Source: a virus (taxonomy: Duplodnaviria; Heunggongvirae; Uroviricota; Caudoviricetes). From it: DNA of 64,000 nucleotides. The stretch is from IMG/VR virus record IMGVR_UViG_3300036884_000676; one strand, 5' to 3'. The notes under the pieces are model-generated. The model was not told where the DNA came from and made no database searches. It saw only the letters and a program-made list of their open reading frames with translations. This document shows positions 67 through 56,612 of this stretch, one piece after another. The position numbers were made by a program, and so were the translations under genes. The stretch's first letter is position 1; each line of letters begins with the position of its first letter.

Positions 67-726
67 ATGTTTTTACACACATTAGATGAAATGAAATTTT
101 CATTTATTAAATCTGGAAATTATTTGAATACTGGAAACTTCCTTTATTTTTTTAGAACCGAGTGGATAAAAAAACCAATAGATGTATTAGATGGATTTGA
201 ATTTAAAGATTCTGTTAAGAATACATTCAGAACATATGGTAAAATCAGTAATGAGAAATTATCTTTTTATTTCGGTATCAGGAATGGTATTTTAGAATAT
301 GGTTTTTATAATGATCTAAAAGATGTTATTTATAAAACTGGACAATTAAATATAAAAGACAATGAATTGAGACAAATAAAATCATATAGTTGTTTAGCTA
401 TGATAAGTGGGGTACTGAGAATAGCATCCACTAAAACATTAACTTTATTACATGAAATCAAAAAAGATCTAAAATATTTCTTTGAAGATAAGACCAGTAA
501 AGGAATAATCATCTTAACAACTATGAGACTCAGAAAAGTCATTTCAAAAGAATTATTAAAAGATAATATGAAAAATTCCGATGATCTAACTAATACTTTT
601 GTTGAATGGTGTAATAAATATCCTTGGGGTAAAAAGATAGAAGCATACATTGATGATTCCGAGGATGATGTTTCTTTCTACATAAAAATAAAATCCAAGA
701 ATAGTGATAAACCTGTTGTCTTATAA
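67..726 (+). CDS. hypothetical protein, possibly truncated at the window start
   Basis: 219-aa ORF from the six-frame track. Its stop overlaps the next gene start. No recognisable motif. Confidence 0.4.
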   Translation: MFLHTLDEMKFSFIKSGNYLNTGNFLYFFRTEWIKKPIDVLDGFEFKDSVKNTFRTYGKISNEKLSFYFGIRNGILEYGFYNDLKDVIYKTGQLNIKDNELRQIKSYSCLAMISGVLRIASTKTLTLLHEIKKDLKYFFEDKTSKGIIILTTMRLRKVISKELLKDNMKNSDDLTNTFVEWCNKYPWGKKIEAYIDDSEDDVSFYIKIKSKNSDKPVVL

Positions 727-1288
727 TAGTTTCATTAATGAATCTAAAATATATGAACATCCATTATTTCATGGTTCTGGCCGTAAATTTGATATCTTTG
801 ACTTTAATAGATTGGGTCAAGATGGTCATTTATTAAGTTTTCTTGGGATTCATTTTACTGAAAATGATACTGTTGCTGAAAGATTTACAAATCCACCTGA
901 TTATATTATCTACGAAATAGAATTGAAATATAACAAATTCTTGAAAATAAAAGAGGGTAATTTAGTCAAAGAAATGTTGAAGTTTGGACTTGAAAAAAAG
1001 ATAATCGATTTATCAATTTTTCCATCAAAAAACATATTTGATTTACCATATTTTGGAACAAAGAATTGTTTAATGAATCAATTATTTAATTTAACAGATG
1101 GAAAAGCAAAAGAAATTTCATTGGAATATAAAAACCACCTAATGAATCAAGGATATGATTGTATTAAGTATATAAATGAAATAGAATCACCAGACATTAA
1201 AAGATTTGATTGGATTATCTTTAAATCAGAACAAATAAAAGTATTAAAAGTGTGGGATTTAAAACCAAGATTGGAAATAAAATGGTAA
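704..1288 (+). CDS. H-G-S motif protein, ART-fold-like paralog 1 with a CTS-like N-terminus
   Basis: N-terminus MINLLSYNSFINE. HPLFHGSG is followed about 27 aa later by LGIHFTEN. Paralogous to the next ORF and to 20452, 35218 and 54197. Confidence 0.55.
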   Translation: MINLLSYNSFINESKIYEHPLFHGSGRKFDIFDFNRLGQDGHLLSFLGIHFTENDTVAERFTNPPDYIIYEIELKYNKFLKIKEGNLVKEMLKFGLEKKIIDLSIFPSKNIFDLPYFGTKNCLMNQLFNLTDGKAKEISLEYKNHLMNQGYDCIKYINEIESPDIKRFDWIIFKSEQIKVLKVWDLKPRLEIKW

Positions 1289-1872
1289 CGAAATTTTACA
1301 TATTTGAAAAAAAAAACAATATAGTTGGTCCATTATATCATGGAAGTGGAATAGTATTCGATAAATTTTCAAATGAAAAATTAGGAAGTAGCCGAAATGT
1401 TGTACATTTAATGGATTTTCTTGGAATTCACTTCACCCCCGATAAAAAAATGGCCGAAAGATTATTCTCAAAACCACCCAATTATGTTGTTTATGAAGTT
1501 GAAATCAAGGTTAACAAGATTTTAAAAAAGAGAGAAAGTCAATTAGTGAGGGATATGCTGAAATGGGGAGGTGAAAATGACTATGTTGACAAGGAATTCA
1601 TTGAAAAGAATTACTTATTATATAGAACATATAGTAATATAACACCATTCGATAGAGAAAATAAAATAATTTCATTGAATCATTTTCTATTAGAAGATAA
1701 CACATTTGATAAAAAGAAATTAACACTTGATTACAAACAATATTTAATTGAACAGGGTTATGATTCCATACATTATTTGAATGAAATAGAATGGTCATCA
1801 GATGAAAGATGGGATTGGATAGTTTTTAATGATAACCAGATAAAAATAATTAATATATACAAGGGTAAATAA
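1282..1872 (+). CDS. H-G-S motif protein, ART-fold-like paralog 2 (tandem duplicate)
   Basis: Aligns over its length with 704..1288: LYHGSG...LGIHFTPD...EQGYDSIHYLNEIE versus NQGYDCIKYINEIE. The likely start is the ATG at 1282, which overlaps the upstream stop in an ATGGTAA junction. Confidence 0.55.
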   Translation: MVTKFYIFEKKNNIVGPLYHGSGIVFDKFSNEKLGSSRNVVHLMDFLGIHFTPDKKMAERLFSKPPNYVVYEVEIKVNKILKKRESQLVRDMLKWGGENDYVDKEFIEKNYLLYRTYSNITPFDRENKIISLNHFLLEDNTFDKKKLTLDYKQYLIEQGYDSIHYLNEIEWSSDERWDWIVFNDNQIKIINIYKGK

Positions 1873-1888
1873 AAAATAAAATCAATAT

Positions 1889-2353
1889 ATGAAACACATT
1901 AAAGAATTTGAATTGAATGAAAATGCAACTCCAGTTGATTCTTTCAGAAAAGAAATTATGGATGCATATATTTGGATAAGAAAAAACAATAGTACCATTC
2001 CAGATGAAGTTTTAGATTTCATGAAAGACGCTGCCATTGAAAAATTAGATTCTAAAACTAAAGAAAGTATACTTTTGCTTAAATTTAGAACAGAAGATAT
2101 TTATCATAATAAACACACTTTGGCTGTTAATCAGAGGTCAGATGATTCAATTGGATATTCATTTTTCTCTGGATGGCAAAGTTCTGGTATGGGTAATGCT
2201 TTGAGTAATATGATGATGAAGAAATCTTTACCATCAAGTGTAAAAGGTTTCTCCAATATAAAACAATTACAAAGTGAAATTCAAAGTTGTATCGATTCTG
2301 GTGTTGGTGAGAAGGTAATGAAAGTTGAAGAAATAAATAAGATAAGGAAATAA
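1889..2353 (+). CDS. hypothetical protein
   Basis: 154-aa ORF, tightly packed with its neighbours. Confidence 0.4.
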   Translation: MKHIKEFELNENATPVDSFRKEIMDAYIWIRKNNSTIPDEVLDFMKDAAIEKLDSKTKESILLLKFRTEDIYHNKHTLAVNQRSDDSIGYSFFSGWQSSGMGNALSNMMMKKSLPSSVKGFSNIKQLQSEIQSCIDSGVGEKVMKVEEINKIRK

Positions 2354-3097
2354 ATGAAGAATATCCTGACATACAATGAATTTATAAATGAAGATTATCG
2401 TGATGTTGTTGGTTGTGGTAGTGGGGGTATACACGCGGATGACCGTCAACAACCTATTATAGCAAGTGGTAAATATAGTAGTGGAAGTATTACCAGTATT
2501 AGTAGTATCGGTGATTGGAACGGAGATAAAAAGGTATTAGGAACAGAAGAAATAAAGGATGTTAAGAGTGATTATTTTAATCAAAGAAGAAGGAGAAAAA
2601 AGAAAGAAACACCAATAGAAGAAGAAAAGAAAAAGAGAATGAGAAGAAAAGTATATAAAAATTTATTAGCTCTTGATAAAGCGGTAGAAGAAGATAAAGA
2701 TAATAATATAACAACAAAATTTGCTGATTTTAAAGAGGATAAAATAAAGAAATTCGACAAGACCAAGGAATTTGATCCCTTATCCGATGATATCATGGTA
2801 TTTCAAGAACTCGAAGATGGTGAAATTGAAAAAGTTAAAGAACCAGTAAAAATTTTACAAGTCACTGGAATCATAACTGATCCAGAAAAGATTAAGAAAC
2901 TTGAATCTGTTAGTGGTGGACCTGTTTTTTCTACCGAATTAAAAGTAAAATCTGTTAAAAGAGGTGATATAATATGGTTAACAGCCTTATTGGAAAGACC
3001 ACATGCAACTACATCTTGGAATGCTCAAACAATGGGTGTAATCAAAGCAAGAGTTGTTGATTACTATTACGGTTTAAATAAATTGAAATATGTATGA
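2354..3097 (+). CDS. basic internal-protein-like protein with CTS-like leader
   Basis: N-terminus MKNILTYNEFINE| followed by a Gly/Ser-rich segment. Highly basic stretch RRRRKKKETPIEEEKKKRMRRK. The ATGA overlap with the upstream ORF is typical of phage gene junctions. Confidence 0.5.
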   Translation: MKNILTYNEFINEDYRDVVGCGSGGIHADDRQQPIIASGKYSSGSITSISSIGDWNGDKKVLGTEEIKDVKSDYFNQRRRRKKKETPIEEEKKKRMRRKVYKNLLALDKAVEEDKDNNITTKFADFKEDKIKKFDKTKEFDPLSDDIMVFQELEDGEIEKVKEPVKILQVTGIITDPEKIKKLESVSGGPVFSTELKVKSVKRGDIIWLTALLERPHATTSWNAQTMGVIKARVVDYYYGLNKLKYV

Positions 3098-3630
3098 TTA
3101 TAAGATTCAAAAAATTTAATGAAAAATTAGATCTTGTTAAAGATGTTGACAAATTGTTGGAAATATCCAAATGCAAAGCTTTTTATATCATTTTCAATAA
3201 TAAAACAAAACAAGAAATTAGTATTCCATTAGATTATTGTAGTGGTGAATATGCCGCACTTCTTAAAGGTTATTCTGTTAAACCATATAAAAAAAGTAAT
3301 TTGATTCCAATTACTGAAAAGAATGCACTCATGTTAATAGTAGATTGGGATTATTCATATGAAATAAAATCAGATCTTGCTGATGAAAAACGTAAAATTC
3401 TTATTATTCAATACGATTTACCAGATAAATTACCAGAAATGAAAGAGAATTTATTAAATGAATCTGATACTCAGACATATAGGAAACTCCAATTCATAAG
3501 AGAACAAATCAGAAATATAACAAAAACTATTCGTGAAGTTGATTGGAAAAAAACTACTGACGGTGAGAAAAGTGATATATCTGATTCTTTGGAAAATTTA
3601 GTTTCTTTGGTAAAAAATAAAGCCAAATAA
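3094..3630 (+). CDS. hypothetical protein
   Basis: 178-aa ORF with an overlapping start. Confidence 0.4.
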   Translation: MIIRFKKFNEKLDLVKDVDKLLEISKCKAFYIIFNNKTKQEISIPLDYCSGEYAALLKGYSVKPYKKSNLIPITEKNALMLIVDWDYSYEIKSDLADEKRKILIIQYDLPDKLPEMKENLLNESDTQTYRKLQFIREQIRNITKTIREVDWKKTTDGEKSDISDSLENLVSLVKNKAK

Positions 3631-3637
3631 TTTTTTT

Positions 3638-5617
3638 ATGTTAGAGAAATATAGTATTTTTGTAGTTCAAATCCCTACCAACATGGAAAAGTCAGATAGA
3701 ATCGTGAGTGATTACCCTACATTTCTCAAAGAAGAAGCCCAAAATCAAGAAGTCGGAATAGGTACTCGATTCTATCATCAGAATGGATGGTGGGTTGTAA
3801 AGAGTAAAGGAATTCCTGACCATTGGGGATGTGTAAGCGAAAAGACTAATGCATTCGTGACCTTTTCTACTCAAGAAATTCTTGATTCTGAAAATCCAGT
3901 TGATGACAATCAGGGTAAAGATATAAAATTATTCTATACCGTAGAAACAAAGAGGATTGAGATTCCTGTTGGTAGTGATACACACAAAAGTAGTGACGAT
4001 AAGAAAAAAACATTTGAAAAAATATTCAGAAGAATAGCGAAAGTATCCAAGTTTATTAAAGTCCCCGAACCCACACTTACTCTTATTGAAAAGAAAAAAT
4101 ATTTCGCCTGTTGTCATCCAAGTGAAAGAGGATTATCATACGACAGGAAAACCGTTTCAAAGAAAGAAAAACCAGAAGAAACAGATAGGGTGGTGATTGT
4201 TTATACAGATATAAACGAAGCCACCGATAGATGTAATTTTCTCAATAAAGATTCTATTGAAAAACAAAAAAAGTCAAAATTGGGAATGGAAGTTTGGAAT
4301 GATGATGAAGATAATAAATTGTTTGAACCTTGGAGAGTAGTATCCAAAGAAGTTGAAGTATATGACCTGAAAATGGCTACCGTCCTTAAACCTGAGGATG
4401 AATGGTTAATTTTGGGTACTATTGATCACAAAGACGGACTTTTGAAAAATGCTCCGGGTCAACAAGTTCCAATTAGTTTAGTTCCTGACCAGATGATAGG
4501 TCATTCATATTGTGATCATTGTAAAAGAACCATATACAGAAACAAGACTGTTTTTGTTCAGAAAATAAAGACAGGTGAGATCCTCAGGGTTGGGGGTTCA
4601 TGTATTCGTAACTATTTGGGATATGATTATGAAAAGGTATTATCCTATTTAACCGATATTTCATTCCTTGATGAAAGTTACGGTGATTTCGATGGTGGTG
4701 GTGATGATTGGGATGAAGGATTTAGTGGTGGTTGGGGTCCAAAATTTGATGTGGAGATCTCAACTAATGAGGTAATCAAGTATTTCTATTGGTTCTACAA
4801 AAAGAATGGATATATGTCCAAAGCAACAGCTGAGAAGATTAATCAAAAAAGAGACCAAGATTATCTCGCTGACCCTGATCATCCAAAAGAAGAATATTAT
4901 AATAAAAAAGAAGTTAAATCAACATCAGGTAGAGTACAAGATGATGTTGATTACGCTCATAACCCCCCTGACAGAAGAAATTATCATGGTAAAAGTTCAT
5001 CAGAATATCAAGAAGATTTTAATAGATGGTCTGATTTTGTCACAATATACAATGAGAGATTAGAAACCACATCCGATGAAGAATTACAATGGGTTATTGA
5101 TTTCATTCACGCCAATCGTGATAATAACTTCATCTTTAACGCCAGTAACATGATTAAGGCCGGTGCCGTTCAGAAACATCTCCTGTATTACATTACAGGT
5201 GCTTGTTCTTGGTACTTCGGTAAACTCTCTCAGGAAGATAGGAAAAGAAGAGAAGCTGAAGAAGCTCTCTCTGGTGGTAAGAAAGAATCAGAATATGTTG
5301 GTACAGTTGGAGAAAAATCAAGACTTGAAAATCTTGAAGTGGTTCATATCAGTGGATACCAAACAGAATGGAATTGGTCAAATGTATATAAATTAAAAGA
5401 CCAGATAGGAAATATTTATACTAAGTTTGGTACTATTGGTTCTCAGTTCATTGTAAAACCTACTGAACAAGGTAGACAAAAAGACGAACAGGGGAATCTC
5501 ATTATTAATGATATTTTAGTAGGTGATGTGGTATCAGCTACAGCTGAAATTAAGAGACATGAGGAATATCAGGGAAAGAAACAAACCACTCTGGGTCGTT
5601 TTTCAAAACTTAAATAA
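3638..5617 (+). CDS. large hypothetical protein
   Basis: 659-aa uninterrupted ORF with a Cys pair (CDHCKRT...GGSC). No family recognised. Confidence 0.5.
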   Translation: MLEKYSIFVVQIPTNMEKSDRIVSDYPTFLKEEAQNQEVGIGTRFYHQNGWWVVKSKGIPDHWGCVSEKTNAFVTFSTQEILDSENPVDDNQGKDIKLFYTVETKRIEIPVGSDTHKSSDDKKKTFEKIFRRIAKVSKFIKVPEPTLTLIEKKKYFACCHPSERGLSYDRKTVSKKEKPEETDRVVIVYTDINEATDRCNFLNKDSIEKQKKSKLGMEVWNDDEDNKLFEPWRVVSKEVEVYDLKMATVLKPEDEWLILGTIDHKDGLLKNAPGQQVPISLVPDQMIGHSYCDHCKRTIYRNKTVFVQKIKTGEILRVGGSCIRNYLGYDYEKVLSYLTDISFLDESYGDFDGGGDDWDEGFSGGWGPKFDVEISTNEVIKYFYWFYKKNGYMSKATAEKINQKRDQDYLADPDHPKEEYYNKKEVKSTSGRVQDDVDYAHNPPDRRNYHGKSSSEYQEDFNRWSDFVTIYNERLETTSDEELQWVIDFIHANRDNNFIFNASNMIKAGAVQKHLLYYITGACSWYFGKLSQEDRKRREAEEALSGGKKESEYVGTVGEKSRLENLEVVHISGYQTEWNWSNVYKLKDQIGNIYTKFGTIGSQFIVKPTEQGRQKDEQGNLIINDILVGDVVSATAEIKRHEEYQGKKQTTLGRFSKLK

Positions 5618-5621
5618 TCAA

Positions 5622-6047
5622 TTAAACTTCATCTATAATTCTATCTGGTGGTATGTTTCTTTCTACATAAACAGCTTTACCATCTTCACCTTTTGAAAAT
5701 TGAGAACTCCATTCACTCATATCACTTGCTTCTTCATCCTTAATTAAATCATAACCTGATAAATCGACTTTCCATATTGTCATCTCTTGTGGATTATATC
5801 CATCTTCTTCATTGAATTCTTTAAACCATTCAGCATATTTCAAATCCAACCAAAAATAATTTCTTATTGGTGACATTTCTTTTTTACCAAGTCTGGAATA
5901 TCTTTCTTTTGGTATCTTTTTAATACCCTCTTTTAAAATTTTGGAATCTAATTTCGATGGAGCTACATGATAACCAACGATTATCTTCTCAGAATTCTCA
6001 TTTATACTTAAATAATCATCAAAGTTCAGAATCATCGTCACCATCAC
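5622..6047 (-). CDS. hypothetical protein
   Basis: 141-aa ORF on the minus strand. Confidence 0.4.
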   Translation of the reverse strand: MMVTMILNFDDYLSINENSEKIIVGYHVAPSKLDSKILKEGIKKIPKERYSRLGKKEMSPIRNYFWLDLKYAEWFKEFNEEDGYNPQEMTIWKVDLSGYDLIKDEEASDMSEWSSQFSKGEDGKAVYVERNIPPDRIIDEV

Positions 6048-8301: not shown

Positions 8302-8787
8302 TTAGTCAATATGTATACGAGAATGTAAATACATCCTTGGTGTCCATTCCTCTGTTGAAATGATACTTATTGATTGAGCGATGGTTGTAAGATACAAATT
8401 ATTTTTAGTTTCTAATTCTTTGTTTATATAGTCAACTAATTTATCAACTAATATCCTTTCTAACTGTTGAACGATGGTTGAACTATCCAAAGAAGATTCT
8501 TTAATTGCTGTTATTTGAGCACTATCAACCTCAACATCGAAACTTAAAGTTGGTAATCCTTCTTTCAATATAACATTTTTATCCTTTATATTTAATTGAG
8601 ATAGAATTTTTAAAGAAACTGGTAATAAGTTTTGAGCAATATCATCCTCACCAAGTTTTGTTACTATTAAATTTTCAATTTCATGTTTAAGATGAAATTC
8701 AGCGTATTCAGCCATAATTTTTCTAACTTTTTCGTCTGTTACTTTTAGAGCGTCCATAATAGGACTCCATTTTGTGTAAATATCCAT
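8302..8787 (-). CDS. hypothetical protein
   Basis: 161-aa ORF. Confidence 0.4.
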   Translation of the reverse strand: MDIYTKWSPIMDALKVTDEKVRKIMAEYAEFHLKHEIENLIVTKLGEDDIAQNLLPVSLKILSQLNIKDKNVILKEGLPTLSFDVEVDSAQITAIKESSLDSSTIVQQLERILVDKLVDYINKELETKNNLYLTTIAQSISIISTEEWTPRMYLHSRIHID

Positions 8788-19555: not shown

Positions 19556-20455
19556 CTAAAATTTTCTAATTTTTTCTACGAAGCTGAATAATTTTCTAAT
19601 ATATTCATCTTTCTTATATGAACTGGTCATTAAATAAACACAATAAACAAAATACATCATTTTATTAATTACAATATTTTCATTTATATTTTCTCCACCA
19701 ACTTGACGAAATTCTACATAGTTTTTATTGAATAATTTCCAAAAATTAATATTATAAGTTTTTTGAGTGGATGTAAATATTTTTTGAATAATTTGTTCAA
19801 TAAGGTTCTCTATTTGATTCTTATTCATGTCAGTTATATTTCTATTATTAGATGTCTTTTGATAATTTTTATCATTGTTTATTATCATCATAAAAATCTC
19901 AGTCTTTAAACTACTACAATATCCACAGGTTTTTCGAGCTTCAATGTTTTTAAATGTATAATCATCCGATAACATCATAACACCTTTAACAACATTCCAT
20001 CTTGATTTCGGTTTTTTTGTACCGATATTAATATGAATACTTGTTTTATCATTAAAAAACCATTTATTTTGTTTTTCAAAATCTTCGAAAAATATTTTAA
20101 TGAATTCTTTAGATTCTTGTAAGCTATGAAATGGTGGAGTTACAAATTCCATTCCAGATGAAACTGTCCCTTCATAATGATATTCCAAAATATCGAAATA
20201 TTTTCGGAAGAAATTTGGAAAATTATTTTTGATATCCATCACTTTTCTTCTATCCTGAATCGATAATACATTTAATTTCTTCGATTCATTGGTTATTATT
20301 TTTGGGGGAGTAGGTAGACTTCTAATTCTTCTATGGTCAGTGTCCATTTCAATTTCAAATCCGATGGTAAAATAGTCATCCAAAGTCTCTAACAACGAAA
20401 CATCTTTTTTCTGAAATTCCAAGAGAAATTCATCATATGTTCTAAAATTTTTCAT
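19556..20455 (-). CDS. CTS-leader protein (putative virion-packaged internal protein)
   Basis: N-terminus MKNFRTYDEFLLE|FQKK. 299 aa. First gene of a minus-strand operon with overlapping stops and starts. Confidence 0.5.
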   Translation of the reverse strand: MKNFRTYDEFLLEFQKKDVSLLETLDDYFTIGFEIEMDTDHRRIRSLPTPPKIITNESKKLNVLSIQDRRKVMDIKNNFPNFFRKYFDILEYHYEGTVSSGMEFVTPPFHSLQESKEFIKIFFEDFEKQNKWFFNDKTSIHINIGTKKPKSRWNVVKGVMMLSDDYTFKNIEARKTCGYCSSLKTEIFMMIINNDKNYQKTSNNRNITDMNKNQIENLIEQIIQKIFTSTQKTYNINFWKLFNKNYVEFRQVGGENINENIVINKMMYFVYCVYLMTSSYKKDEYIRKLFSFVEKIRKF

Positions 20456-20892
20456 AAATATCTTATTGATGTTTCTTTTGTTATTTTTTCTTTGAATACT
20501 TCTTTAAATTTACTTGAATCAATTCCCATAATTACAAATGTTCCTACTGCATTGTAAGAATCTAACCATGTTTCAAAAAATGATCTGTTCCCATCATCAT
20601 CATCAACTACCCATTCTAAATTTAATATTTCTTCATCTATCACAATTTCAAACACGACAGCCGTTAATTTATCGTATTCCTTATCCCCATTATGTATCAT
20701 TCCCTCTGTTCGACTTATAGCGTGATATTGAGCATGTTCTTCTTCATCTGTTACAAATAAATAACTTTTCTCCAATTCTCTCCAAGTTTCTAAGGTAGTA
20801 CCATGATACATTTTTTTACCAAATAATTCTTCTTTGGTTTTTATGTTGGTAGATTCAAGTAAAAAGTCTTTAAATGTTTTAAAATGGTCCAT
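20452..20892 (-). CDS. CTS-leader H-G-T motif protein (ART-fold-like paralog)
   Basis: N-terminus MDHFKTFKDFLLE|S, then KKMYHGTT. Confidence 0.5.
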   Translation of the reverse strand: MDHFKTFKDFLLESTNIKTKEELFGKKMYHGTTLETWRELEKSYLFVTDEEEHAQYHAISRTEGMIHNGDKEYDKLTAVVFEIVIDEEILNLEWVVDDDDGNRSFFETWLDSYNAVGTFVIMGIDSSKFKEVFKEKITKETSIRYL

Positions 20893-21472
20893 CTATGAAT
20901 TTTATATTCTTTTTATCATATACTCCATATGATATGCCATAATCCTCTTTTTCAGTTATATAATCTGTTAAAGAATTTTGAAAATATTGAAATGAATTGT
21001 ATTTCAAATAATTATGTATGAAATAATCGAAATACTTACTTGATTCTACATGACGAGTGTATATGGTATCAAAAAATTCTCCCATCTGAATAGTATCTTT
21101 AAATTCACTTTCAAAATTATAATTCTGTAATTCTCTCAAATATGTTGGATTCTTATTCTCTAATATGATACGAAAATCATTTAAAAGACGGTTCGCTTCA
21201 AATACTGGTATCTCACGATTCATGTCCAATAAAGGTTCTTCCAATGTTATTTCAAATTTACAAGTATATATTTTTTTACCTCCCCTCATCGGATAAAATC
21301 TTATATCTGGACTGCTGGAAAAATAAATGGCACGACCAAATATGGAAATATCACTACTATGGTCCATTTTGAAATCAGCTTTTAACATATGTTCCAATTG
21401 GTTAGATAAGTGATAAGCTATTACTTTCTTACCCCCCTTAGCTTCCAATAAAAATTCAGTAAATGTTTTCAT
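20879..21472 (-). CDS. CTS-leader protein
   Basis: N-terminus MKTFTEFLLE|AKGG, nearly identical to the T4 internal-protein CTS MKTYQEFIAE. Downstream AYHLSN...GRAIYFSSSPD resembles the H-G-[ST] paralog family. Confidence 0.55.
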   Translation of the reverse strand: MKTFTEFLLEAKGGKKVIAYHLSNQLEHMLKADFKMDHSSDISIFGRAIYFSSSPDIRFYPMRGGKKIYTCKFEITLEEPLLDMNREIPVFEANRLLNDFRIILENKNPTYLRELQNYNFESEFKDTIQMGEFFDTIYTRHVESSKYFDYFIHNYLKYNSFQYFQNSLTDYITEKEDYGISYGVYDKKNIKFIDGPF

Positions 21473-21927: not shown

Positions 21928-21991
21928 TAAATTTATTTCGCTTTATATATTAAAATGTTAAACCAGTAATTAGTTTTCATCTATAAAAAGA

Positions 21992-24644: not shown

Positions 24645-24958
24645 CAACACAAATAAATCAAACACGAGAAGAACATTTAAAGATTATCGAAAAAAATAAC
24701 AATGTAAAGGGGGTCGGTGTACTTCTTTTCGATAATTCATTTACTATTGATGATAAATATTTACATAAACAAATTGAAGGTCAATCTTTTACTAAGTATA
24801 TCATTCCAGATATTAACTATCAAGATATTATTGATATGGGTGAAAAATCAATCTGTTTTAAATTCATTCCATATAATGTAACAATAAAAATAGGTGGTGT
24901 TGAATATGAATTTAATTCATATAATGATATTCCGAAAGATCAATGGTTTTGTAGATAA
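24641..24958 (+). CDS. hypothetical protein
   Basis: 105-aa ORF. Confidence 0.35.
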   Translation: MTTQINQTREEHLKIIEKNNNVKGVGVLLFDNSFTIDDKYLHKQIEGQSFTKYIIPDINYQDIIDMGEKSICFKFIPYNVTIKIGGVEYEFNSYNDIPKDQWFCR

Positions 24959-24979
24959 TTTTTTAATTCAAAAAAATTT

Positions 24980-25010
24980 GTTAACTTCGTAAGTTAACCT
25001 AAATATAAAT
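24980..25010 (+). promoter_or_regulatory. perfect palindrome GTTAACTTCGTAAGTTAAC followed by a TATAAAT box upstream of PTH2
   Basis: 8-bp arms with a 3-nt centre. TATAAAT at 25004..25010 is a T4 late-promoter-like TATAAATA lookalike. The motif AACTTCGTAA plus ATATAAAT recurs at 35741..35760 upstream of csp. Confidence 0.35.
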
Positions 25011-25014
25011 TTTT

Positions 25015-25431
25015 ATGGAAAAACCGAAACAAGTAATTGTTATGAGGAAAGACCTCAATATGAGAAAAGGTAAAATGGTATCTCAGGGCGCTCATGCCTC
25101 TTTTAAAGCCTTTTTGGATTTATGTGAAAAAGAAAACAGAATAAATTTGGAAACTGGTGAATGGAAGATGATTATCTTTCGATATAGAGGGGATGGTCCT
25201 TGGGATCAATGGTTGAATGGTATATTCACAAAAGTTGTTGTTAGTTGTGATAGTGAATCAGAATTACTTGATTTATATCAAAAATCCAAAGATAAAGGAT
25301 TACCTTGTTCTTTGATTACGGACTCTGGTCTGACCGAATTTGATGGTGTTCCAACGAATACTTGTATTGCAATAGGGCCATCTTATCCAGAAACAATAGA
25401 TGAAATAACAGGACATTTGAAATTATTATGA
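25015..25431 (+). CDS. pth2: peptidyl-tRNA hydrolase, PTH2 family
   Basis: VIVMRKDLNMRKGKMVSQGAHAS matches the PTH2 N-terminal signature (V.V.R.DL.MGKGK.AAQ..HA). Confidence 0.75.
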   Translation: MEKPKQVIVMRKDLNMRKGKMVSQGAHASFKAFLDLCEKENRINLETGEWKMIIFRYRGDGPWDQWLNGIFTKVVVSCDSESELLDLYQKSKDKGLPCSLITDSGLTEFDGVPTNTCIAIGPSYPETIDEITGHLKLL

Positions 25432-25811
25432 AAAACATCGAAGTTGATTTAAAATTCTATGCCGTCAGAAGTAAAGACGGAAAATGGCTGAGGACTAAGG
25501 GATATAGTGGTAGTGGAGATAGTTGGGTAGATGATATAAAGAAAGCTAAGATATATCCAAGGATAGGCCCTGCAAGAAGTCAAGTTACTTGGTGGTCGAA
25601 TAATTATCCTGATTATGGTATTCCAGAACTGATAGAATTACATTGTACCAATGGTATCATTCTGGAAGAAAAGGAAAGGGTTCAAAAGGCCATTGAAAAA
25701 AAGAAACAGGATATAATCAATGCCGAGATAAGTCATAGAGAATGGGAAATAGAACAAGCCCAAAACCAATTGAAAAAAGCTCAGAAAAAATTGAAGGAAT
25801 TGAAAAAATGA
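25428..25811 (+). CDS. hypothetical protein with C-terminal coiled coil
   Basis: 127 aa, ending in K/E/Q-rich heptads. Confidence 0.35.
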   Translation: MKNIEVDLKFYAVRSKDGKWLRTKGYSGSGDSWVDDIKKAKIYPRIGPARSQVTWWSNNYPDYGIPELIELHCTNGIILEEKERVQKAIEKKKQDIINAEISHREWEIEQAQNQLKKAQKKLKELKK

Positions 25812-26266
25812 TACGAAAATCGGGGAAAAATATAACCACAACCGAAAGTGAAGAAGAATTAGAATTAAATCAATTTATCAATAACTTTCTTTCAAGGGAT
25901 ATACCATTCAAAGATAAAATTTTGGATTCTTTTCTGAGTGATAAATTAGATCCCCAGAGTAAAATTATAATTCGAGGATATGATAAGAAAAATGATAGAA
26001 TTTTACATGAACAATCGGATAATATCGGTGAAGTAGAAACATCGAGTAAATTTTTAGGATGTCGTTTCAGAAAAGTAAAATTACAAATTAGATTAGAAAC
26101 AATCGATGATATCAATAATCTAATTAAATTTTTAGAATATATAAGGCCGTGTTTAGGTGAGGATTCAGATGAACAGAATATCAATGAAAACAGAAAAAGA
26201 ACACTAAAAAAGATATTAAATGAACCAGATAACTTTCCAAAAATTAATTGGAACGGGGGATATTGA
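25808..26266 (+). CDS. hypothetical protein
   Basis: The likely start is the ATG at 25808 (MIRKSGKN), which forms an ATGA junction with the upstream stop. The track ORF begins at 25742. Confidence 0.35.
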   Translation: MIRKSGKNITTTESEEELELNQFINNFLSRDIPFKDKILDSFLSDKLDPQSKIIIRGYDKKNDRILHEQSDNIGEVETSSKFLGCRFRKVKLQIRLETIDDINNLIKFLEYIRPCLGEDSDEQNINENRKRTLKKILNEPDNFPKINWNGGY

Positions 26267-27143
26267 TTATTTTTTAGAATGATGATTGTGTGGTTCAACA
26301 TGAATAGTCACATCAGTAAAGGGTTGAACCTTTTTTATTTTTTCTTCTAAATCATCAGATATTTCATGTGCCTCAACCAATGTAATACATCCAACATGAA
26401 TGGTGACATCAACATAGTAGATATGTCCAGATTGTCTTATTTTAAATCCATGATAACATTTAATATCATCTCCATAATTCTTTATGACATCTTCAATATC
26501 TTTAGCTACATCAAAGGGTACTTTATCAAGTAAAGAATCTACGGCTTTTCTTCCAAGTCGGTATGATACATGAATAACAATCAATGCGACAAACAAAGCG
26601 GCAACGGAGTCAGCATAGAACAACCATCTCATACCAACCAACTTACCTATCGTCACACATATCAAACCGAAAAGAACAACCGATGAACTCCATATGTCTG
26701 TTGAAAAATGAATGGCGTCGGCTTCCAATGCTGGACTGTTGTATTTTTTAGCTGTCCTATGAAGTTTACGGGATCTCCAAAGATGTTATGACGATGATAT
26801 AACTGAATACACTTATCTTTATATCAACATTTCCATTGATTAATCGGTGAATAGATTCCCAACAAATCCAGAAACAGGTTATAAACAGAAGGAATGTTTC
26901 AATTAGGGCTGAAAAATTTTCAATCTTACCATGTCCATAATGATGATCCTTATCGGCCTCTTTAACTGACGCCTTGACAGCATATAAGGTAATCAAAGCG
27001 GCGACTAAATCCAATCCCGAATGGAGTGCCTCGGATAAAATACCCAAACTGTTTGTCCAAGTTCCTATCCCCAATTTAAATGTGGTTAGAAAAATGGCCG
27101 CAAATACAGAAATGAGAGCTACTTTTCGTTTCTCGTGTTTCAT
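26267..27143 (-). pseudogene. cation diffusion facilitator (CDF) transporter gene interrupted by a frameshift
   Basis: Two adjacent minus-strand ORFs in different frames. The N-terminal ORF (26766..27143) has the TM2 motif SEALHSGLD. The C-terminal ORF (26267..26728) has the TM5 motif ADAIHFSTD and the cytoplasmic domain. The 37-nt gap contains a T6 homopolymer. Confidence 0.6.
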
Positions 27144-27451
27144 TTCTTTCTCTTTTTTATGGGAGTGGCTGGCTTCCTGAATTCTCTTTTCTGATATCTA
27201 CTTTTTCTACTATCAGTAAAAAAATTATAATCAGAAATGTTTATTACTGGTAAAGGTGGAAGTGATCTTAATTCCATGATTGGTTCATTACTGATAACCA
27301 GATCTCCGACTATTCCTTTTTCTTTTAATTCATTTAAATTTTCAACATGGATAATTTCGATTTCGGCACCATCCAACTTTCCAACGATTTCAAGAGTACG
27401 GAGTTGTGCACTACCAATTGGTCCGATTCCGATTACTATAATATTATCCAT
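27140..27451 (-). CDS. small Rossmann-like (TrkA-N/RCK-like) domain protein
   Basis: NIIVIGIGPIGSA glycine-rich dinucleotide-binding motif. Its stop overlaps the CDF start. Confidence 0.35.
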   Translation of the reverse strand: MDNIIVIGIGPIGSAQLRTLEIVGKLDGAEIEIIHVENLNELKEKGIVGDLVISNEPIMELRSLPPLPVINISDYNFFTDSRKSRYQKREFRKPATPIKKRKK

Positions 27452-50495: not shown

Positions 50496-51380
50496 ATGGA
50501 ATGGGATGCAATAAAATGGGCACAAACCTATAAAACTTCAAATCTTAACAGAAGAAAAGAACTTTTGATTGATGTTTGGGAAAACACGATTAAAATCGTT
50601 AAGAATGGAAAATACTTCTCGGATGGAGAAGTTATCATTGACAACTCGAAAGTGTGCCAGAACTCTTTATTTACTGAAAATGGCCCAATTTATGACCCAA
50701 CGGGGATAAATGACTTTAAAACTGAAATATTGGTCATGGATGCTGATTGTTTGGATGTAGCAAGAACGATGGAAAATCCGATAGTTTTAAATATGGCCAG
50801 TTATAAGAATCCCGGTGGTGGTGTAATAAATGGTTCATCGGCACAGGAAGAAAATTTATTCAGAAGAACCAATTTATTTAAATCTCTTTATCAATATGTT
50901 GATTATGCTCATCAGTATGGAATAGAACAAAATTCTAAATACAAATATCCATTGGGTGATTATGGTGCAATCTATTCAAAAGATATAACCGTTTTTCGTG
51001 GTTCTGAAAAAAATGGATATTATTTACTCTCCCATCCATTCAAATGTGCTTTTATATCTGTACCTGCAATAAAAAGACCAGAATTGAAGAATAGAAGAAT
51101 GAATGAAAATGACTTCTCCAAAACCAAACAAAAAATAAGAAGGATTTTTCAATTCGCTCATGAGAATGGACATAGAGATTTAGTTCTTTCCGCTTTTGGT
51201 TGTGGTGCTTATGGAAATCCACCCGAACAGATAGCTTCAATCTTTAAAGAATTATTAGATACTGAATATAAAGGGGTTTTTCATAAGATAGTATTCGCTA
51301 TCTATGATGATCATAACTCATATAAAGAACACAATCCAGATGGAAATTTAAAACCATTCAAGAAAATATTTAATATATAA
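50496..51380 (+). CDS. bacterial-type poly(ADP-ribose) glycohydrolase (DUF2263 macrodomain)
   Basis: NMASYKNPGGGVINGSSAQEENLFRRTNLFKSL carries the PARG GGG-X7-QEE catalytic signature. The C-terminal LVLSAFGCGAYGNP also matches bacterial PARGs. Confidence 0.75.
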   Translation: MEWDAIKWAQTYKTSNLNRRKELLIDVWENTIKIVKNGKYFSDGEVIIDNSKVCQNSLFTENGPIYDPTGINDFKTEILVMDADCLDVARTMENPIVLNMASYKNPGGGVINGSSAQEENLFRRTNLFKSLYQYVDYAHQYGIEQNSKYKYPLGDYGAIYSKDITVFRGSEKNGYYLLSHPFKCAFISVPAIKRPELKNRRMNENDFSKTKQKIRRIFQFAHENGHRDLVLSAFGCGAYGNPPEQIASIFKELLDTEYKGVFHKIVFAIYDDHNSYKEHNPDGNLKPFKKIFNI

Positions 51381-51387
51381 TCACATT

Positions 51388-51972
51388 ATGACAAATTTAT
51401 ACATTGATGAATTGGATTTCGAAGATGATGAAAATATCAAAATTATTGATTTTCCAATAACAAGACAAGCCTATTCATATACTTGTGGTTGTGATATAGT
51501 AGAAAGAACAATGGAATTTTATGGTGAAAATTTTCGTGAATCTGATTTAGTTGAAATTTTGAAAACTAACGAAGAAGAAGGAACACTTGTAAAAAACATA
51601 GTGAAATTTTTTCATTATCATGATCTAAAGACTGAATTACAACAAGATATGACAATTGATGATCTGATTAAATATGTGGATAAGAACATTCCAGTAATTG
51701 TTTTGATACAAGCTTGGGGAACTGATTTTAAATTCAAAAGAAAATATAAAGAAACTTGGGGAGATGGACATTTTGTGGCTGTAATTGGATACACAGATAA
51801 ACTTTTATTAATTAGTGATCCGTCTTTATTTAATGTCGGATATATACCAAAATCTGAATTTATGAACAGATGGCATGACATTGATGATGGACTTGAAACA
51901 TATCAACTCGGATTGGCTGTTTTTGGAAGAAAAGCAATATTTGATAAAGATAAGTTAGAAAGAGTCAGATGA
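51388..51972 (+). CDS. papain-like cysteine peptidase (C39/C1-like)
   Basis: Q...YSYTCGCDIV is a nucleophile Cys context. DGHFVAVIGY resembles papain DHAVAAVGY around the catalytic His. Confidence 0.5.
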   Translation: MTNLYIDELDFEDDENIKIIDFPITRQAYSYTCGCDIVERTMEFYGENFRESDLVEILKTNEEEGTLVKNIVKFFHYHDLKTELQQDMTIDDLIKYVDKNIPVIVLIQAWGTDFKFKRKYKETWGDGHFVAVIGYTDKLLLISDPSLFNVGYIPKSEFMNRWHDIDDGLETYQLGLAVFGRKAIFDKDKLERVR

Positions 51973-53084: not shown

Positions 53085-53475
53085 TATGAATTTTTTAGAT
53101 AAATTTTTGATTGGGAAATCGGTTGAACCAGATATTAAAAATCATATTTGGTGTAATTTATTTGAAACCAATGAAAAAGATATTGATGGAATTTTGGAAT
53201 TTTTATCTCAAGAAAATAAAAAATATTGTGAAGAAATGAATTGGGATTCATGGAAATTTAATTATAGAAAACCAAAATTCGGGGAAACAATAATCGGAAT
53301 TGGAACAAAAAGTGCAGCTGGTACTGAAATGTATAATTCTTGTTATATAATTACAACTGACTTTATGAATAGACCAGATGGATTCGTATCTCATTGTTAT
53401 TCGGGTCATGAAATATCAGAAAAAATACAAAATTTCATTAGATCTCAAAAATTAAAATCGTTGTTAAATGATTGA
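53077..53475 (+). CDS. hypothetical protein (paralog family member 3)
   Basis: MIDMNFLDKFLIGKSVE...FGETIIGI...IRSQKLKSLLND. A tandem duplicate of the previous ORF. Confidence 0.4.
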   Translation: MIDMNFLDKFLIGKSVEPDIKNHIWCNLFETNEKDIDGILEFLSQENKKYCEEMNWDSWKFNYRKPKFGETIIGIGTKSAAGTEMYNSCYIITTDFMNRPDGFVSHCYSGHEISEKIQNFIRSQKLKSLLND

Positions 53476-54202
53476 TATAAATAAAATATATTTCGATAAT
53501 TGTTTACATCTAATGCCTGATATTGATACTCATATTGTTGATATGATTCTTGCTGATTTACCATACGGAGTCACAAGAAACAAGAAAGATATTATGATCC
53601 CATTTGAATTACTCTGGAAGAACTACAATCGAATTATAAAACCGAATGGATGTATTGCTTTATTCGCTCAGGGAATGTTCGCTCACAAACTTGCTTTATC
53701 TAATGAGAAAATGTATCGTTATGATTTGATATGGAAAAAAGGAGAAAGGGTCACTGGATTTTTAAATGCAAAAAAACAAATACTTAGAAACCATGAGCAA
53801 ATTTTGATTTTCTATAAAAAACAACCAACTTACCATCCACAATTTACAGAGGGGACACCTCAGCATTCAAAAGGTAACGCTTTTTCTTTCAAAGAAGGAA
53901 AAAATCAAAATTATGGTTATTTTGATTCGAAAATTCCAGATATAAGAAAAGGAACTACACAAAAATATCCGAAAAGTGTTTTAAACTTCGAAAAACCTTG
54001 GCCACCTGTACATAGAACCCAAAAACCAGTAAAATTGTGTGAATGGTTAATATTGACCTTTACGAATCCCGGAGAATTAGTACTGGATAACACTTGTGGT
54101 ATTGGAACAACCTGTATAGCAGCTAAGAATACAGGAAGAAATTTCATAGGAATTGAAAATGATGAAGAATTTTATAATATGGATTATTATCATTTGTTAT
54201 GA
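53468..54202 (+). CDS. DNA N6-adenine/N4-cytosine methyltransferase (beta class)
   Basis: Motif IV ILADLPYG (DPPY-like) precedes motif I VLDNTCGIGTT. The C-terminal GRNFIGIE is typical of N-methyltransferases with the circularly permuted beta-class architecture. Confidence 0.75.
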   Translation: MIDINKIYFDNCLHLMPDIDTHIVDMILADLPYGVTRNKKDIMIPFELLWKNYNRIIKPNGCIALFAQGMFAHKLALSNEKMYRYDLIWKKGERVTGFLNAKKQILRNHEQILIFYKKQPTYHPQFTEGTPQHSKGNAFSFKEGKNQNYGYFDSKIPDIRKGTTQKYPKSVLNFEKPWPPVHRTQKPVKLCEWLILTFTNPGELVLDNTCGIGTTCIAAKNTGRNFIGIENDEEFYNMDYYHLL

Positions 54203-54706
54203 ATAAATATTAGAATCATCTATATCCCAACTTCCATCATTTTTAATATTCTTAATATAATTCGGGTAAAACATAATAAAATCTTTTCTAATTACATCAA
54301 TATCAGTATTGGACTTTTCAATAATTATACCATCATAATTTAACAATATCTTATTCTTTATATTAATTATCTCACTCTTCCATTCCTTAACATCATTCAT
54401 ATAATCAAACCAAGTTTCATAAATCTTTGGATTTTCTATTTTCAAATAAACTTTTAAAATTTTCGGATTTAATTTATTGTGTGTAAAAACTTTAGCAACC
54501 TTTAATGATTCAGTAAACCAACACCCTTTACTACAATCAAATATTTTATCAATAGTTGATTTATAATATTCACCTGTTCCGTGATAAGCAATTAATGGAT
54601 GATTATTTTCATCTACGACTTTACTTTCATCAAACCATTTATAAAAATTAGGATTTAAATTTTTATATTCTTCAAACATTTTTAGATATTTCATAGAATT
54701 TACCAT
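54197..54706 (-). CDS. H-G-T motif protein (ART-fold-like paralog)
   Basis: MVNSMKYLKMFEE... then PLIAYHGTGEY...KGCWFTESLKV. C-terminal ILLNYDGIIIEKS aligns with the other paralogs. Confidence 0.5.
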   Translation of the reverse strand: MVNSMKYLKMFEEYKNLNPNFYKWFDESKVVDENNHPLIAYHGTGEYYKSTIDKIFDCSKGCWFTESLKVAKVFTHNKLNPKILKVYLKIENPKIYETWFDYMNDVKEWKSEIINIKNKILLNYDGIIIEKSNTDIDVIRKDFIMFYPNYIKNIKNDGSWDIDDSNIYS

Positions 54707-56019
54707 CTTTTAGTATTAGATATCTTAAAATCTTTTATTCTATTTAAATTTTCTTCGGTTGGCATAGGATCTACATTGAATTTCTTCTTAAATTCACGCC
54801 TCGATATTCCCCAACTTTCATATCCTTTCGAATCTAAATTATTAAATACGATTCCACCACTTGTATTACTTCTCCAAACATACTGAGATTCTATTCTTAT
54901 TCCATCTAATTCATAGTTGGCCTTTTTATCATCATGATCGAAGAATTGAACCGATAATGGACTATTTGCTCCGATCCAATAATCGCCATCCACAATTTCT
55001 ATATCATCTATGGTAAATTTGTAATTTACTGGAATTTCTATGATATATTCTTTTTCTTTTTTACCAGAAACATAATCTACTTCTCCAAAAAATTCTTCTG
55101 TCTTTGGTGAAGTGACTATTTTTACCTTAGTCGGATCAACTCTCAAAATAATACCCTCTTTATTTGCGAAATAAGCAGCTATATCCCTTGATTCGGTAAA
55201 AGATAAGAATTTTCCATCCGATATTTTTGACATTCCTTTCTCAACGATAAATTGAATCAAATTATCAATGAAAGTTTTGACCCAAGTAGTATGTTTATCA
55301 TCAATCCCTTTAGCTTGTTCTTGTGATACTTTTCTTAATTGTTCAATTTCTTTACCTTTTAATCCTTGGAATACCCTTATTCCCCTATATAAATTCTTTG
55401 GAAGTTTCGGTTTATCTTTTTTTATTTTATAATGGTGATAGAAGGAATATAACCAAACATATTGAACTATGTTATTAACTTTCTTAATTGATAAATTATT
55501 TGTTATCGTATAGGCTGGAATACCATCAAAATCAACCCATCTTTTCACGACATCCTTGTGGAGATCAAAATCATATTTAGTACTTTTAGGGTTTGTATTT
55601 TTAATTTTTTCAAGATCCGTAAATCTATTTAAAAATCTAAGTCCATTTGTAGAATTCACATCACCAAACACATTTCTACTTTCTAATCCACCAGAGGCAA
55701 CAATTAACATAGCTGTTTGTTGTCTGAGATCTTTAAAAATGCTAGCTCCCTCCTTTGGAATTTTTTGTCCTATCTGAGCGACAGTATGTAATAAAGATTT
55801 ACTAACTGAATCCTTCCAATTAAGAATCATATTCTCTCTGATTTGAGTATATTTATTAAAGTCCATTCCCATCAAATTAACGAGTTCTTCTTCAGTATTA
55901 AAACCAGTTTTTATGGAATTTTTTAACTTTTCCTTAAATTCTGACCAATCAGTAAATTTTATCGAATCATTGAATTGACCATATCTTTCATTCAAAAATT
56001 CTGAGAATGAATACAACAT
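54700..56019 (-). CDS. Alt-like ADP-ribosyltransferase (R-S-E clade) with CTS-like leader
   Basis: The probable start is the internal Met at 56019, giving MLYSFSEFLNE|R. The R motif is NLYRGIRV, the S-x-S/T motif is FLSFTESRDIA and the E-x-E motif is KEKEYIIEI. The upstream part of the 569-aa track ORF overlaps a plus-strand ORF and is probably spurious. Confidence 0.5.
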   Translation of the reverse strand: MLYSFSEFLNERYGQFNDSIKFTDWSEFKEKLKNSIKTGFNTEEELVNLMGMDFNKYTQIRENMILNWKDSVSKSLLHTVAQIGQKIPKEGASIFKDLRQQTAMLIVASGGLESRNVFGDVNSTNGLRFLNRFTDLEKIKNTNPKSTKYDFDLHKDVVKRWVDFDGIPAYTITNNLSIKKVNNIVQYVWLYSFYHHYKIKKDKPKLPKNLYRGIRVFQGLKGKEIEQLRKVSQEQAKGIDDKHTTWVKTFIDNLIQFIVEKGMSKISDGKFLSFTESRDIAAYFANKEGIILRVDPTKVKIVTSPKTEEFFGEVDYVSGKKEKEYIIEIPVNYKFTIDDIEIVDGDYWIGANSPLSVQFFDHDDKKANYELDGIRIESQYVWRSNTSGGIVFNNLDSKGYESWGISRREFKKKFNVDPMPTEENLNRIKDFKISNTKRW

Positions 56020-56074
56020 AAGAAAGATTTTTTCTTTATATATTAAAAATTTTTGTAACCTTTTTGAATATCTG

Positions 56075-56350: not shown

Positions 56351-56612
56351 AGATCTAAATGATGATTTTTTAAAAAACCTTTTTCAAAAAACACCAGAAT
56401 GTTGTCCATCTGATGATTTTGTAGAAAAGGTTATGAATGCTTGTTGTACCGTTGAAGTAAAACAAACATTCAATATTTTTGTGTGGTTAAGAGAAAAACA
56501 ATCTAAGCTGGTGATAAGTATGACTACTGGTATAATACATTCTTTCGATAATATGTTGAAAGACTATAAACTGGTCACTCAAATTCCCCAACCAATTCAG
56601 CAATCAATTTAG
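56334..56612 (+). CDS. hypothetical protein
   Basis: 92-aa ORF with CCPSDD and ACC. Confidence 0.3.
   Translation: MMMKNKDLNDDFLKNLFQKTPECCPSDDFVEKVMNACCTVEVKQTFNIFVWLREKQSKLVISMTTGIIHSFDNMLKDYKLVTQIPQPIQQSI

Follow-up and report, generated by a model that had tools for sequence, protein, structure and literature searches.

Stand-alone ART-PolyVal proteins with T4-type N-terminal leaders in a Mahaphage-type huge phage: candidates for packaged and injected ADP-ribosyltransferases

Six short open reading frames (ORFs) in a 64,000-nt stretch of a Caudoviricetes genome (IMG/VR record IMGVR_UViG_3300036884_000676), hereafter referred to as the window, encode small proteins with N-proximal motifs reminiscent of ADP-ribosyltransferases (ARTs). 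The reading that we favour, and regard as reasonably probable, is that these are stand-alone members of the ART-PolyVal family, two of them more distant relatives, which a Mahaphage-type phage packages through an N-terminal leader and injects into its host. ART-PolyVal is a branch of the H-Y-[D/E]-type ARTs and is nearest in fold to diphtheria toxin and the PARPs. It occurs in polyvalent proteins of phages and conjugative elements, and was described as an H-Y-D ART, with its His on strand 1, Tyr on strand 2 and Asp on strand 5, and as the commonest protein-modifying domain of polyvalent proteins, i.e. large virion-delivered polypeptides in which 2–15 unrelated effector domains are joined, with T4 Alt serving as the model for its action (Iyer et al. 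2017, PMC5512222).

An ORF check of the window recovered all six reading frames. Two of them form a tandem pair on the plus strand, namely ART1 (704..1288, 194 aa, GTG start) and ART2 (1282..1872, 196 aa), the ATG of which overlaps the ART1 stop codon (ATGGTAA). The others are ORF 20452 (20452..20892, minus strand, 146 aa), ORF 20879 (20879..21472, minus strand, 197 aa), ORF 35218 (35218..35718, plus strand, 166 aa) and ORF 54197 (54197..54706, minus strand, 169 aa). Public gene calls likewise give 194 aa for ART1, and place the starts of ART2 and ORF 54197 at GTG 1252 (206 aa) and ATG 54694 (165 aa), respectively. The resulting extension upstream of the ART2 leader (1252-1281) reads MGFKTKIGNK in the window and MGSKTN(I/V)K in four homologues (P0012, P0013, P0014 and P0016); it shares its DNA with the 3′ end of ART1, read in a different frame, and is either translated or a mere trace of the conserved ART1 end.

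Among the 121 non-overlapping ORFs of the window (20,524 aa), the motif [YF]-H-G-[ST] was observed five times compared to 0.22 expected from composition, always 20–41 residues from the N-terminus. The first-pass annotation of this DNA had ascribed such a motif to all six ORFs, in a more divergent form for ORF 20879; this holds for five, but in ORF 20879 YHLS stands at residue 20. A second proposed motif, G-[IC]-[YHW], can be followed residue by residue in five ORFs as GIHFT (ART1 and ART2), GIYTS (35218), GCWFT (54197) and AIYFS (20879), but ORF 20452 has YLFVT in this region. In addition, five of the six share a third element, an Ala eight residues past the aromatic or His residue followed three to four residues later by another aromatic or His (AERF, AERLF, AKDY, AKVF, HAQYH). 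This element corresponds to A62/Y65 of diphtheria toxin.

Could such short motifs be a chance resemblance among unrelated small AT-rich ORFs? The window has a G+C content of 29% and many short ORFs, and most pairwise identities among the six are only 11–27%, the tandem pair being the closest at 43%. However, the excess of motif copies at a constant distance from the N-terminus speaks against chance, as do the Pfam matches, conserved public homologues and fold matches given below; this explanation is already refuted for five of the six ORFs, and its overall probability is negligible.

The family assignment can be read from Pfam profile PF18760 (ART-PolyVal), which has a gathering score of 31.2 bits. 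ORF 54197 matches it over profile positions 1–137 of 140 (E 3e-15, 57.6 bits) and ART2, read as ORF 1252-1872, also exceeds the threshold (E 4.4e-10, 40.9 bits), while ART1 is borderline just under the cut-off (E 4.9e-7, 31.0 bits) and ORF 35218 is sub-threshold (E 3.6e-6, 28.2 bits; DUF3990, E 0.009). Precomputed PF18760 matches are present on 18 of 18 public ART2 homologues and on all eight homologues of ORF 54197. The latter is a canonical stand-alone ART-PolyVal, including the flanking motifs FYKWF...SKVVD and NDGSWD...NIYS, and matches phrog_21376 (E 1.4e-17) as well as 18 phage records in tblastn; its exact protein is also found on a 597-kb contig. A tblastn search of 50,697 phage records with ART2 as the query gave no match. 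Profile–profile comparisons were made with the leaders trimmed, full-length alignments having matched through the shared leader only; the sole significant one linked the tandem-pair subfamily to the 54197 subfamily (hhalign 97.5%, E 8e-12), and comparisons involving 20879 and 20452 gave E 0.001–0.04.

An AlphaFold2 model of ART2 based on a 20-sequence alignment (pLDDT 86, pTM 0.83) has the split β-sheet of the ART fold together with the helical insert of ART-PolyVal. A Foldseek search of this model against viral models (BFVD) returned ART-PolyVal proteins as top matches, both polyvalent proteins of more than 1000 aa and stand-alone proteins of 129–232 aa from Tenacibaculum phage pT24, Dickeya JA11, Yersinia fHe-Yen9-03, BcepSauron, Atu_ph07 and others. 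The fold matches listed include MbcT, RES toxins, Tpt1 and AcrIF11, along with the pseudo-PARP domains TASOR, RCD1 and SRO1. DarT, to which the family had also been likened, is absent from the best 60 fold matches, and no specific similarity to it in fold or sequence was found. The family profiles gave no significant sequence match to PDB chains, and the best match among solved structures is the pre-ejectosome protein of cyanopodophage A4 (PDB 9k3a chain B, probably gp28), an ejection protein that has been physically seen inside the A4 capsid. This protein differs from the window ORFs in its length of ~1071 residues and its lytic transglycosylase and M23 peptidase domains, shares only 10–17% identity with them, and none of its domains is called an ART in the A4 paper. 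Taken together, ART1, ART2, ORF 35218 and ORF 54197 can be assigned to ART-PolyVal with high confidence.

The two remaining ORFs gave no PF18760 match in the Pfam search and are harder to place. ORF 20879 matches neither Pfam nor PHROG, but its 14 homologues share an invariant Y-H-x-S and G-x-A-I-Y-F-S, and its model (pLDDT 71) reproduces the strand order and helical insert of ART2 as well as the same list of fold matches. On the strength of this model, we accept it as a divergent ART fold with moderate confidence. ORF 20452, in contrast, could be tied to ARTs neither through Pfam or PHROG nor by a significant profile match. Its 24 representative homologues keep YHGT, A54, D97, W109, S112 and G117 invariant, and its profile aligns to the 54197-like profile over strands 1–3 only (hhalign E 0.0013). 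Searched against the PDB, the family profile reaches Tpt1 at E 0.36, and Pfam searches of 17 members found nothing bar Tpt1 at E 0.19 in one. Judging from these alignments, ORF 20452 may be a minimal ART-like domain in the right register, and we see the chances for and against an ART fold as evenly balanced. The proposed ART fold is therefore borne out for five ORFs, by Pfam for four and by the model for 20879, but unproven for the sixth. A protein joining an ART-PolyVal fragment to a 20452-like domain (P0049) was considered as a bridge between the two families and set aside, because its second part starts with a leader and it is thus probably two adjacent units.

Which residues would form the active site? 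The 54197-like profile aligns YHGT and G-x-Y-x-T to SYHGT...KGFYST of diphtheria toxin (E 0.19) and, in the same register, to LYHGT...YVHLS of Tpt1 (E 0.03). Although weak, these alignments agree with the β1/β2 register proposed in the first-pass annotation and thereby fix the first two catalytic positions. For the third position, strand 177–181 of the ART2 model reads WDWIV, followed by NQIKIINIY, which we take to be the counterpart of NEYIVY...QVNLKYLL in PARP1; because WDWIV mirrors NEYIVY, D178 comes to lie at the Glu position. By motif register and strand order, the Asp directly before strand 5 would then be the catalytic acid in ART1 (D169), ART2 (D178) and ORF 54197 (D142).

The strand-1 His is present in all six ORFs (H23 in ART1, H20 in ART2, H30 in 20452, H21 in 20879, H22 in 35218 and H42 in 54197) and invariant in every family alignment. 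At the strand-2 position, 35218 and 20879 have Tyr (Y43 and Y50), ART1 and ART2 His (H50 in both, at least 90% conserved in their subfamily), 54197 Trp (W63) and 20452 Phe (F46). The helix Ala and its aromatic or His partner would be A58/F61 in ART1, A58/F62 in ART2, A51/Y54 in 35218, A71/F74 in 54197 and A54/H57 in 20452. The predicted NAD-pocket positions, comprising the strand-1 His, the strand-2 Gly-x-[H/Y/W]-F-[S/T] and the helix Ala plus aromatic, are conserved, and in the tandem-pair alignment H, G, G and A are invariant and H50, Y71 and D178 of ART2 near-invariant. The acid is more variable: a β5 acid, whose conservation had been suggested as a check, is found as Asp in ART1, ART2 and 54197, but is replaced by Ala148 in 35218 and Ser181 in 20879 and cannot be located in 20452. 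The triads would read H-H-D (ART1, ART2), H-W-D (54197), H-Y-A (35218) and H-Y-S (20879), so that 35218 and 20879 would be either acid-less mono-transferases or non-catalytic; for 35218, an H-Y-A variant or an inactive protein is the choice because of Ala148.

This leads to the question of whether 35218, 20879 and 20452 are catalytically dead ART folds, acting as packaged binders or inhibitors similar to T4 IPI*, or as decoys for NAD or ADP-ribose. The Ala and Ser at the position aligned to the catalytic Asp would fit such a role, as would the pseudo-PARPs among the fold matches and the precedent of the T4 internal proteins, which are diverse anti-restriction inhibitors with the targeting sequence alone in common (PMC3012670). 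Conversely, all members of the 20879 family keep the His, the Gly-x-Tyr-Phe-Ser and further residues of the pocket, suggesting that NAD binding is retained. Moreover, several human PARPs that lack the Glu are active mono-transferases, and bona fide PF18760 homologues vary in the same manner, with Y, F, H or W at the second position and E, D, L, A or S at the third. We therefore consider dead folds distinctly unlikely.

The likeness to classical ARTs has clear limits. Compared to diphtheria toxin and the PARPs (H-Y-E), the window ORFs show no significant sequence match (the best PARP Pfam match is E 0.02, in one homologue), use Asp for Glu, carry an extensive helical insert separating strand 4 from strand 5 and have no translocation or regulatory domains. 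Tpt1/KptA (H-H-h) resembles them in that LYHGT...x-V-H-L-S aligns with YHGT...G-I-H-F-T and its second-position His is shared by the tandem pair, but a significant profile match was not obtained. T4 Alt, ModA and ModB, finally, belong to the R-S-E clade, in contrast to the H-Y-D type seen here; the signature of that clade, an Arg on strand 1, Ser-x-Ser on strand 2 and a Glu-x-Glu, does not fit the window ORFs.

The window has no close DNA relative that we could find. Its family-B DNA polymerase (56575-58050, minus strand, near ART 54197) shares 67% identity with its counterpart in LR756501 (735 kb; Al-Shayeb et al.) and 40% with those of 634–642-kb genomes, all of which are Mahaphages with predicted Bacteroidetes hosts. 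By this polymerase comparison, the window phage can be placed among the huge phages of the Mahaphage group. It had initially been regarded as T4-like; as a relative of a Mahaphage it is not a classical T4-like phage, although the head module of this relative is of T4 type. In LR756501, the closest complete relative, a Portal_T4 protein (E 1e-69), an 807-aa protease-scaffold protein with an N-terminal gp21/S77-like domain (segment 49001-99000, segment positions 24913-27336) and a Gp23-type capsid protein (E 1.9e-25) stand in T4 gene order, and this order as well as a weak tblastn match to T4 gp21 (E 3.8e-4) contribute to the protease call.

This head module is of special importance for the N-terminal leader. 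In T4, the capsid targeting sequence MKTYQEFIAE is cleaved once, after Glu (PMC8442874); internal proteins join the scaffold core through it, and gp21 cuts core and internal proteins alike C-terminal to Glu (PMC5694885). The N-terminus of ORF 20879 reads MKTFTEFLLEA, the closest of the set to the T4 signal, and the suggestion that several copies carry a capsid-targeting leader can be extended, as some form of it is present on all six ORFs. The full form ending in [LI]-x-E is found in 20879 (MKTFTEFLLE), 20452 (FKDFLLE) and ART1 (SYNSFINE, residues 6–13). The pattern M-x(1-5)-[FY]-x-x-[FY]-[ILV]-x-E starts at least 15 otherwise unrelated ORFs of the window, these six included, and precedes domains as different as ARTs, an SprT-like zincin and a DnaJ protein. 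The other leader ORFs are located at 2354, 5622(-), 6019(-), 19556(-), 21469(-), 21730(-), 29893(-), 34434, 36102(-), 38566(-) and 54700-56019(-). A looser version of the pattern occurs within the first 25 residues of 17 of the 121 ORFs, about a dozen of them clear cases, compared to 3.5% of internal 25-residue windows. In LR756501, the strict leader is found on ~25 of the 307 ORFs that the first 246 kb encode, and a 14-residue unit (YSEYIAE, YAEYIAE and similar) is repeated 12 times in succession in the protease-scaffold protein, which has two further copies as well. The leader looks like a single copy of this scaffold repeat. Its match to both the T4 signal and the repeat supports, without proving, co-assembly with the scaffold and cleavage after Glu. 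No description of such a leader in huge phages was found in the limited collection of literature searched.

If so, each protein would be made with a leader of ~10 residues ([FY]-x-x-[FY]-[ILV]-x-E) that mimics the repeat unit of the scaffold core and lets the protein co-assemble into the prohead. A T4 gp21-type protease would then cut the leader off after its Glu, leaving the bare ART domain in the head to be injected along with the DNA. Once in the cell, the enzymes would draw on host NAD+ and ADP-ribosylate their host targets as soon as infection begins, in the manner of T4 Alt and of the ARTs within polyvalent proteins. Paralogues that differ in acceptor loop and catalytic triad would have different targets. 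The structural match to the A4 ejection protein also speaks for packaging, and by analogy with T4 we put packaging and injection of the leader-bearing ART proteins at slightly better than even.

Several observations weigh against this reading and its parts. The leaders of ART2 (KFYIFE), 35218 (KFKIFEE) and 54197 (YLKMFEE) are shortened (F-K-I-F-E-E) and lack the [ILV]-x-E spacing. The head module was seen in LR756501, a relative at 67% polymerase identity, with that of the window phage itself lying beyond the sequence, and the Peptidase_S77 match in LR756501 (E 6.7e-5, 22.9 bits) falls below the 27-bit Pfam cut-off. With respect to the enzymes, the putative catalytic residues were mapped through motif and strand register, 35218 and 20879 have no acidic residue at the inferred position, and ORF 20452 is no more than a candidate ART.

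The arrangement of the genes bears on this question as well. The sequence TTAATATATA occurs at 12 sites in the window versus 1.29 expected: 1850, 6624(-), 8044(-), 21944(-), 22455, 30742(-), 36473(-), 39476(-), 43915, 51370, 56037(-) and 56289. It lies 5–27 nt upstream of start codons, and half of the sites head leader-bearing clusters (six clusters). One copy (21944..21953, minus strand) precedes a five-gene leader cluster running from 21921 to 19556 that holds ORFs 20879 and 20452; another (56037..56046, minus strand) stands ahead of a 439-aa leader ORF (54700-56019) and ART 54197; and a variant, TTTTATATATA (34418..34428, plus strand), is found ahead of the SprT-like zincin gene (34434-35225) and ART 35218. 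Just upstream of the window on the same contig, TTAATATATA is followed by a 243-aa leader ORF and then by ART1 and ART2, and this order of leader ORF, ART1 and ART2 is kept in related contigs. The element is also frequent in this flank and in LR756501, and is probably a phage promoter element. It also stands before genes without a leader, which is a further point against the favoured reading.

An alternative is that the proteins are active ART-PolyVal enzymes that are never packaged and act in the cytoplasm after de novo synthesis similar to T4 ModA and ModB, their common N-terminus being an element of translation initiation or folding, or a tag for another compartment. T4 indeed has ARTs that act after synthesis, and both the degenerate leaders on three of the ARTs and the occurrence of TTAATATATA before non-leader genes would be expected in this case, as would the lack of structural genes adjoining the ART genes in the window. 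It does not readily explain, however, why the leader is conserved at the protein level, as can be concluded from synonymous codon usage that differs between copies, why it matches the T4 signal and the LR756501 scaffold repeat and has at its end [ILV]-x-E, the motif at which proteases of the gp21 type act, or why many unrelated proteins in two genomes carry it. We regard this alternative as unlikely.

Returning to packaging, the ART 35218 locus invites comparison with polyvalent proteins. Directly upstream of and overlapping this gene lies that of an SprT-like zincin metallopeptidase (34434..35225, plus strand; Pfam SprT-like, E 4.1e-8; leader MITDFTDFLNEN), each of the two having its own leader. 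Both domain types, metallopeptidase and ART, act as hubs in polyvalent proteins, some of which contain them as a fusion (Iyer et al. 2017, PMC5512222), so that by analogy the gene pair looks like an unbundled polyvalent protein. Like ART-PolyVal domains in general, the window proteins combine profile matches (four ORFs), the strand-1 His and, in some copies, the aromatic and Asp positions, and the helical insert with a phage origin and predicted delivery together with DNA. They differ in being stand-alone proteins of 146–206 aa with their own T4-type leader instead of modules of a >1000-aa protein fused to MuF, metallopeptidase or virion RNA polymerase; all six are single-domain, and multi-domain architecture, the hallmark of polyvalent proteins, is missing. 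Moreover, the tandem pair has His and 54197 has Trp in place of the strand-2 Tyr, and two paralogues lack the Asp. In concept, a parallel is the tagged cargo of T4, where an ART or anti-defence protein enters the prohead core, is trimmed by gp21 after Glu and is injected; T4 has a handful of such proteins, while the Mahaphage clade appears to have dozens, to judge from LR756501.

On this basis, it is tempting to speculate that Mahaphage-type phages replaced the giant polyvalent protein by modular, leader-tagged cargo consisting of dozens of small effectors, a view that we hold only tentatively. The effectors would include at least five ART paralogues with different triads, the SprT zincin and the DnaJ protein, and the leader, as a copy of the repeat unit of the protease-scaffold protein, would load all of them into the head. 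If true, the ARTs would constitute a diversified arsenal with individually exchangeable members, complemented by an eraser and an NAD+ supply.

Candidates for these two functions are indeed encoded in the window. A microbial-type PARG/macro-domain protein (50496..51380, plus strand; PARG_cat_microb, E 1.5e-26; TIGR02452, E 2.7e-43) is a candidate ADP-ribose eraser, and a fusion of MazG with a NadD-like nicotinate/nicotinamide mononucleotide adenylyltransferase (28644..29543, minus strand; CTP_transf_like, E 2.3e-17, plus MazG; TIGR00482, E 3.4e-28 but below its cut-off) is a candidate source of NAD+. Together with the ARTs, this suggests a phage-encoded writer–eraser–supply set for NAD+ and ADP-ribose. 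The same two genes would also be in line with small molecules or nucleic acids as the actual targets, i.e. with NAD+ glycohydrolases, anti-defence enzymes degrading a signal, or DNA/RNA ADP-ribosyltransferases acting within such a network. MbcT, RES toxins, Tpt1 and AcrIF11 among the fold matches, as well as the NADase-type phage ARTs noted earlier (Iyer 2022), point in this direction, which we nevertheless consider quite improbable. A toxin–antitoxin or defence role was dismissed, as nothing resembling an antitoxin accompanies the genes and their surroundings are those of a phage genome.

How much of this is new? The first-pass annotation had expected a family of injected NAD-utilising enzymes to be novel for T4-like phages. 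This expectation cannot be upheld, since the ART-PolyVal family was described in 2017, stand-alone copies from jumbo myoviruses are already named in UniProt/BFVD, and a 2022 survey reported ARTs in >40% of jumbo phages, with as many as 10 in a single genome and frequently in a packaging context (Iyer 2022). Head packaging of ART-PolyVal domains has likewise been predicted (Iyer et al. 2017, PMC5512222; Iyer 2022); neither the family nor the notion that phages inject ARTs of this clade is therefore new. Added here are the H-H-D subfamily and the acid-less 20879 branch, which is invisible to Pfam, as well as, if real, delivery through a T4-type leader attached to single-domain proteins instead of through polyvalent fusion. 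No biochemical study of PF18760 was found in the same limited literature collection. The ART assignment provides a predicted function for five previously unannotated genes of an uncultured huge phage. In addition, the occurrence of one leader on many unrelated small enzymes and its match to the scaffold repeat would make it possible to predict, by a simple rule read from sequence, which proteins a huge phage injects, and the leader could serve as a natural tag to load foreign proteins into such capsids.

The window and its upstream flank contain further proteins with ART-like motifs. The 439-aa ORF 54700-56019 (minus strand), directly upstream of ART 54197, starts with the leader MLYSFSEFLNE and has the R-S-E-like motifs LYRGIRV, FLSFTES and EKEYIIE, making it a possible Alt-type ART by motif. 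Similar R-S-E-like motifs (VYRGES, ISWSYE, SEKEILVF) are found in a 185-aa leader ORF of the flank (1996-2553, minus strand), and a 140-aa leader ORF in the window (5622-6044, minus strand) reads GYHVAPS...NYFWLD...AVYVERNIP. Searches of Pfam, NCBIfam and PDB sequences lent no support to these three candidates. The flank also encodes a 518-aa protein (2700-4256, plus strand) whose N-terminal part is an ART-PolyVal domain (E 1.5e-9) and whose C-terminal domain reads LYHACP...RIYMSTN, with a leader-like stretch (MIINFGEFEFVLLE) inside the chain; ORF 5622-6044 resembles this C-terminal domain and, loosely, Tpt1-like ARTs.

Finally, the vicinity of ART 54197 includes a Peptidase_C39-like protein (51388-51972, plus strand) and an N6/N4 DNA methyltransferase (53468-54202, plus strand). 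Elsewhere in the window, a 161-aa ORF (8302-8787, minus strand) aligns with the LR756501 capsid protein of Gp23 type in three distinct places, namely the propeptide region at its N-terminus (37% identity, E 8e-14), a segment in the middle and the C-terminus (52% identity), and from these alignments looks like a miniature paralogue of the capsid protein.

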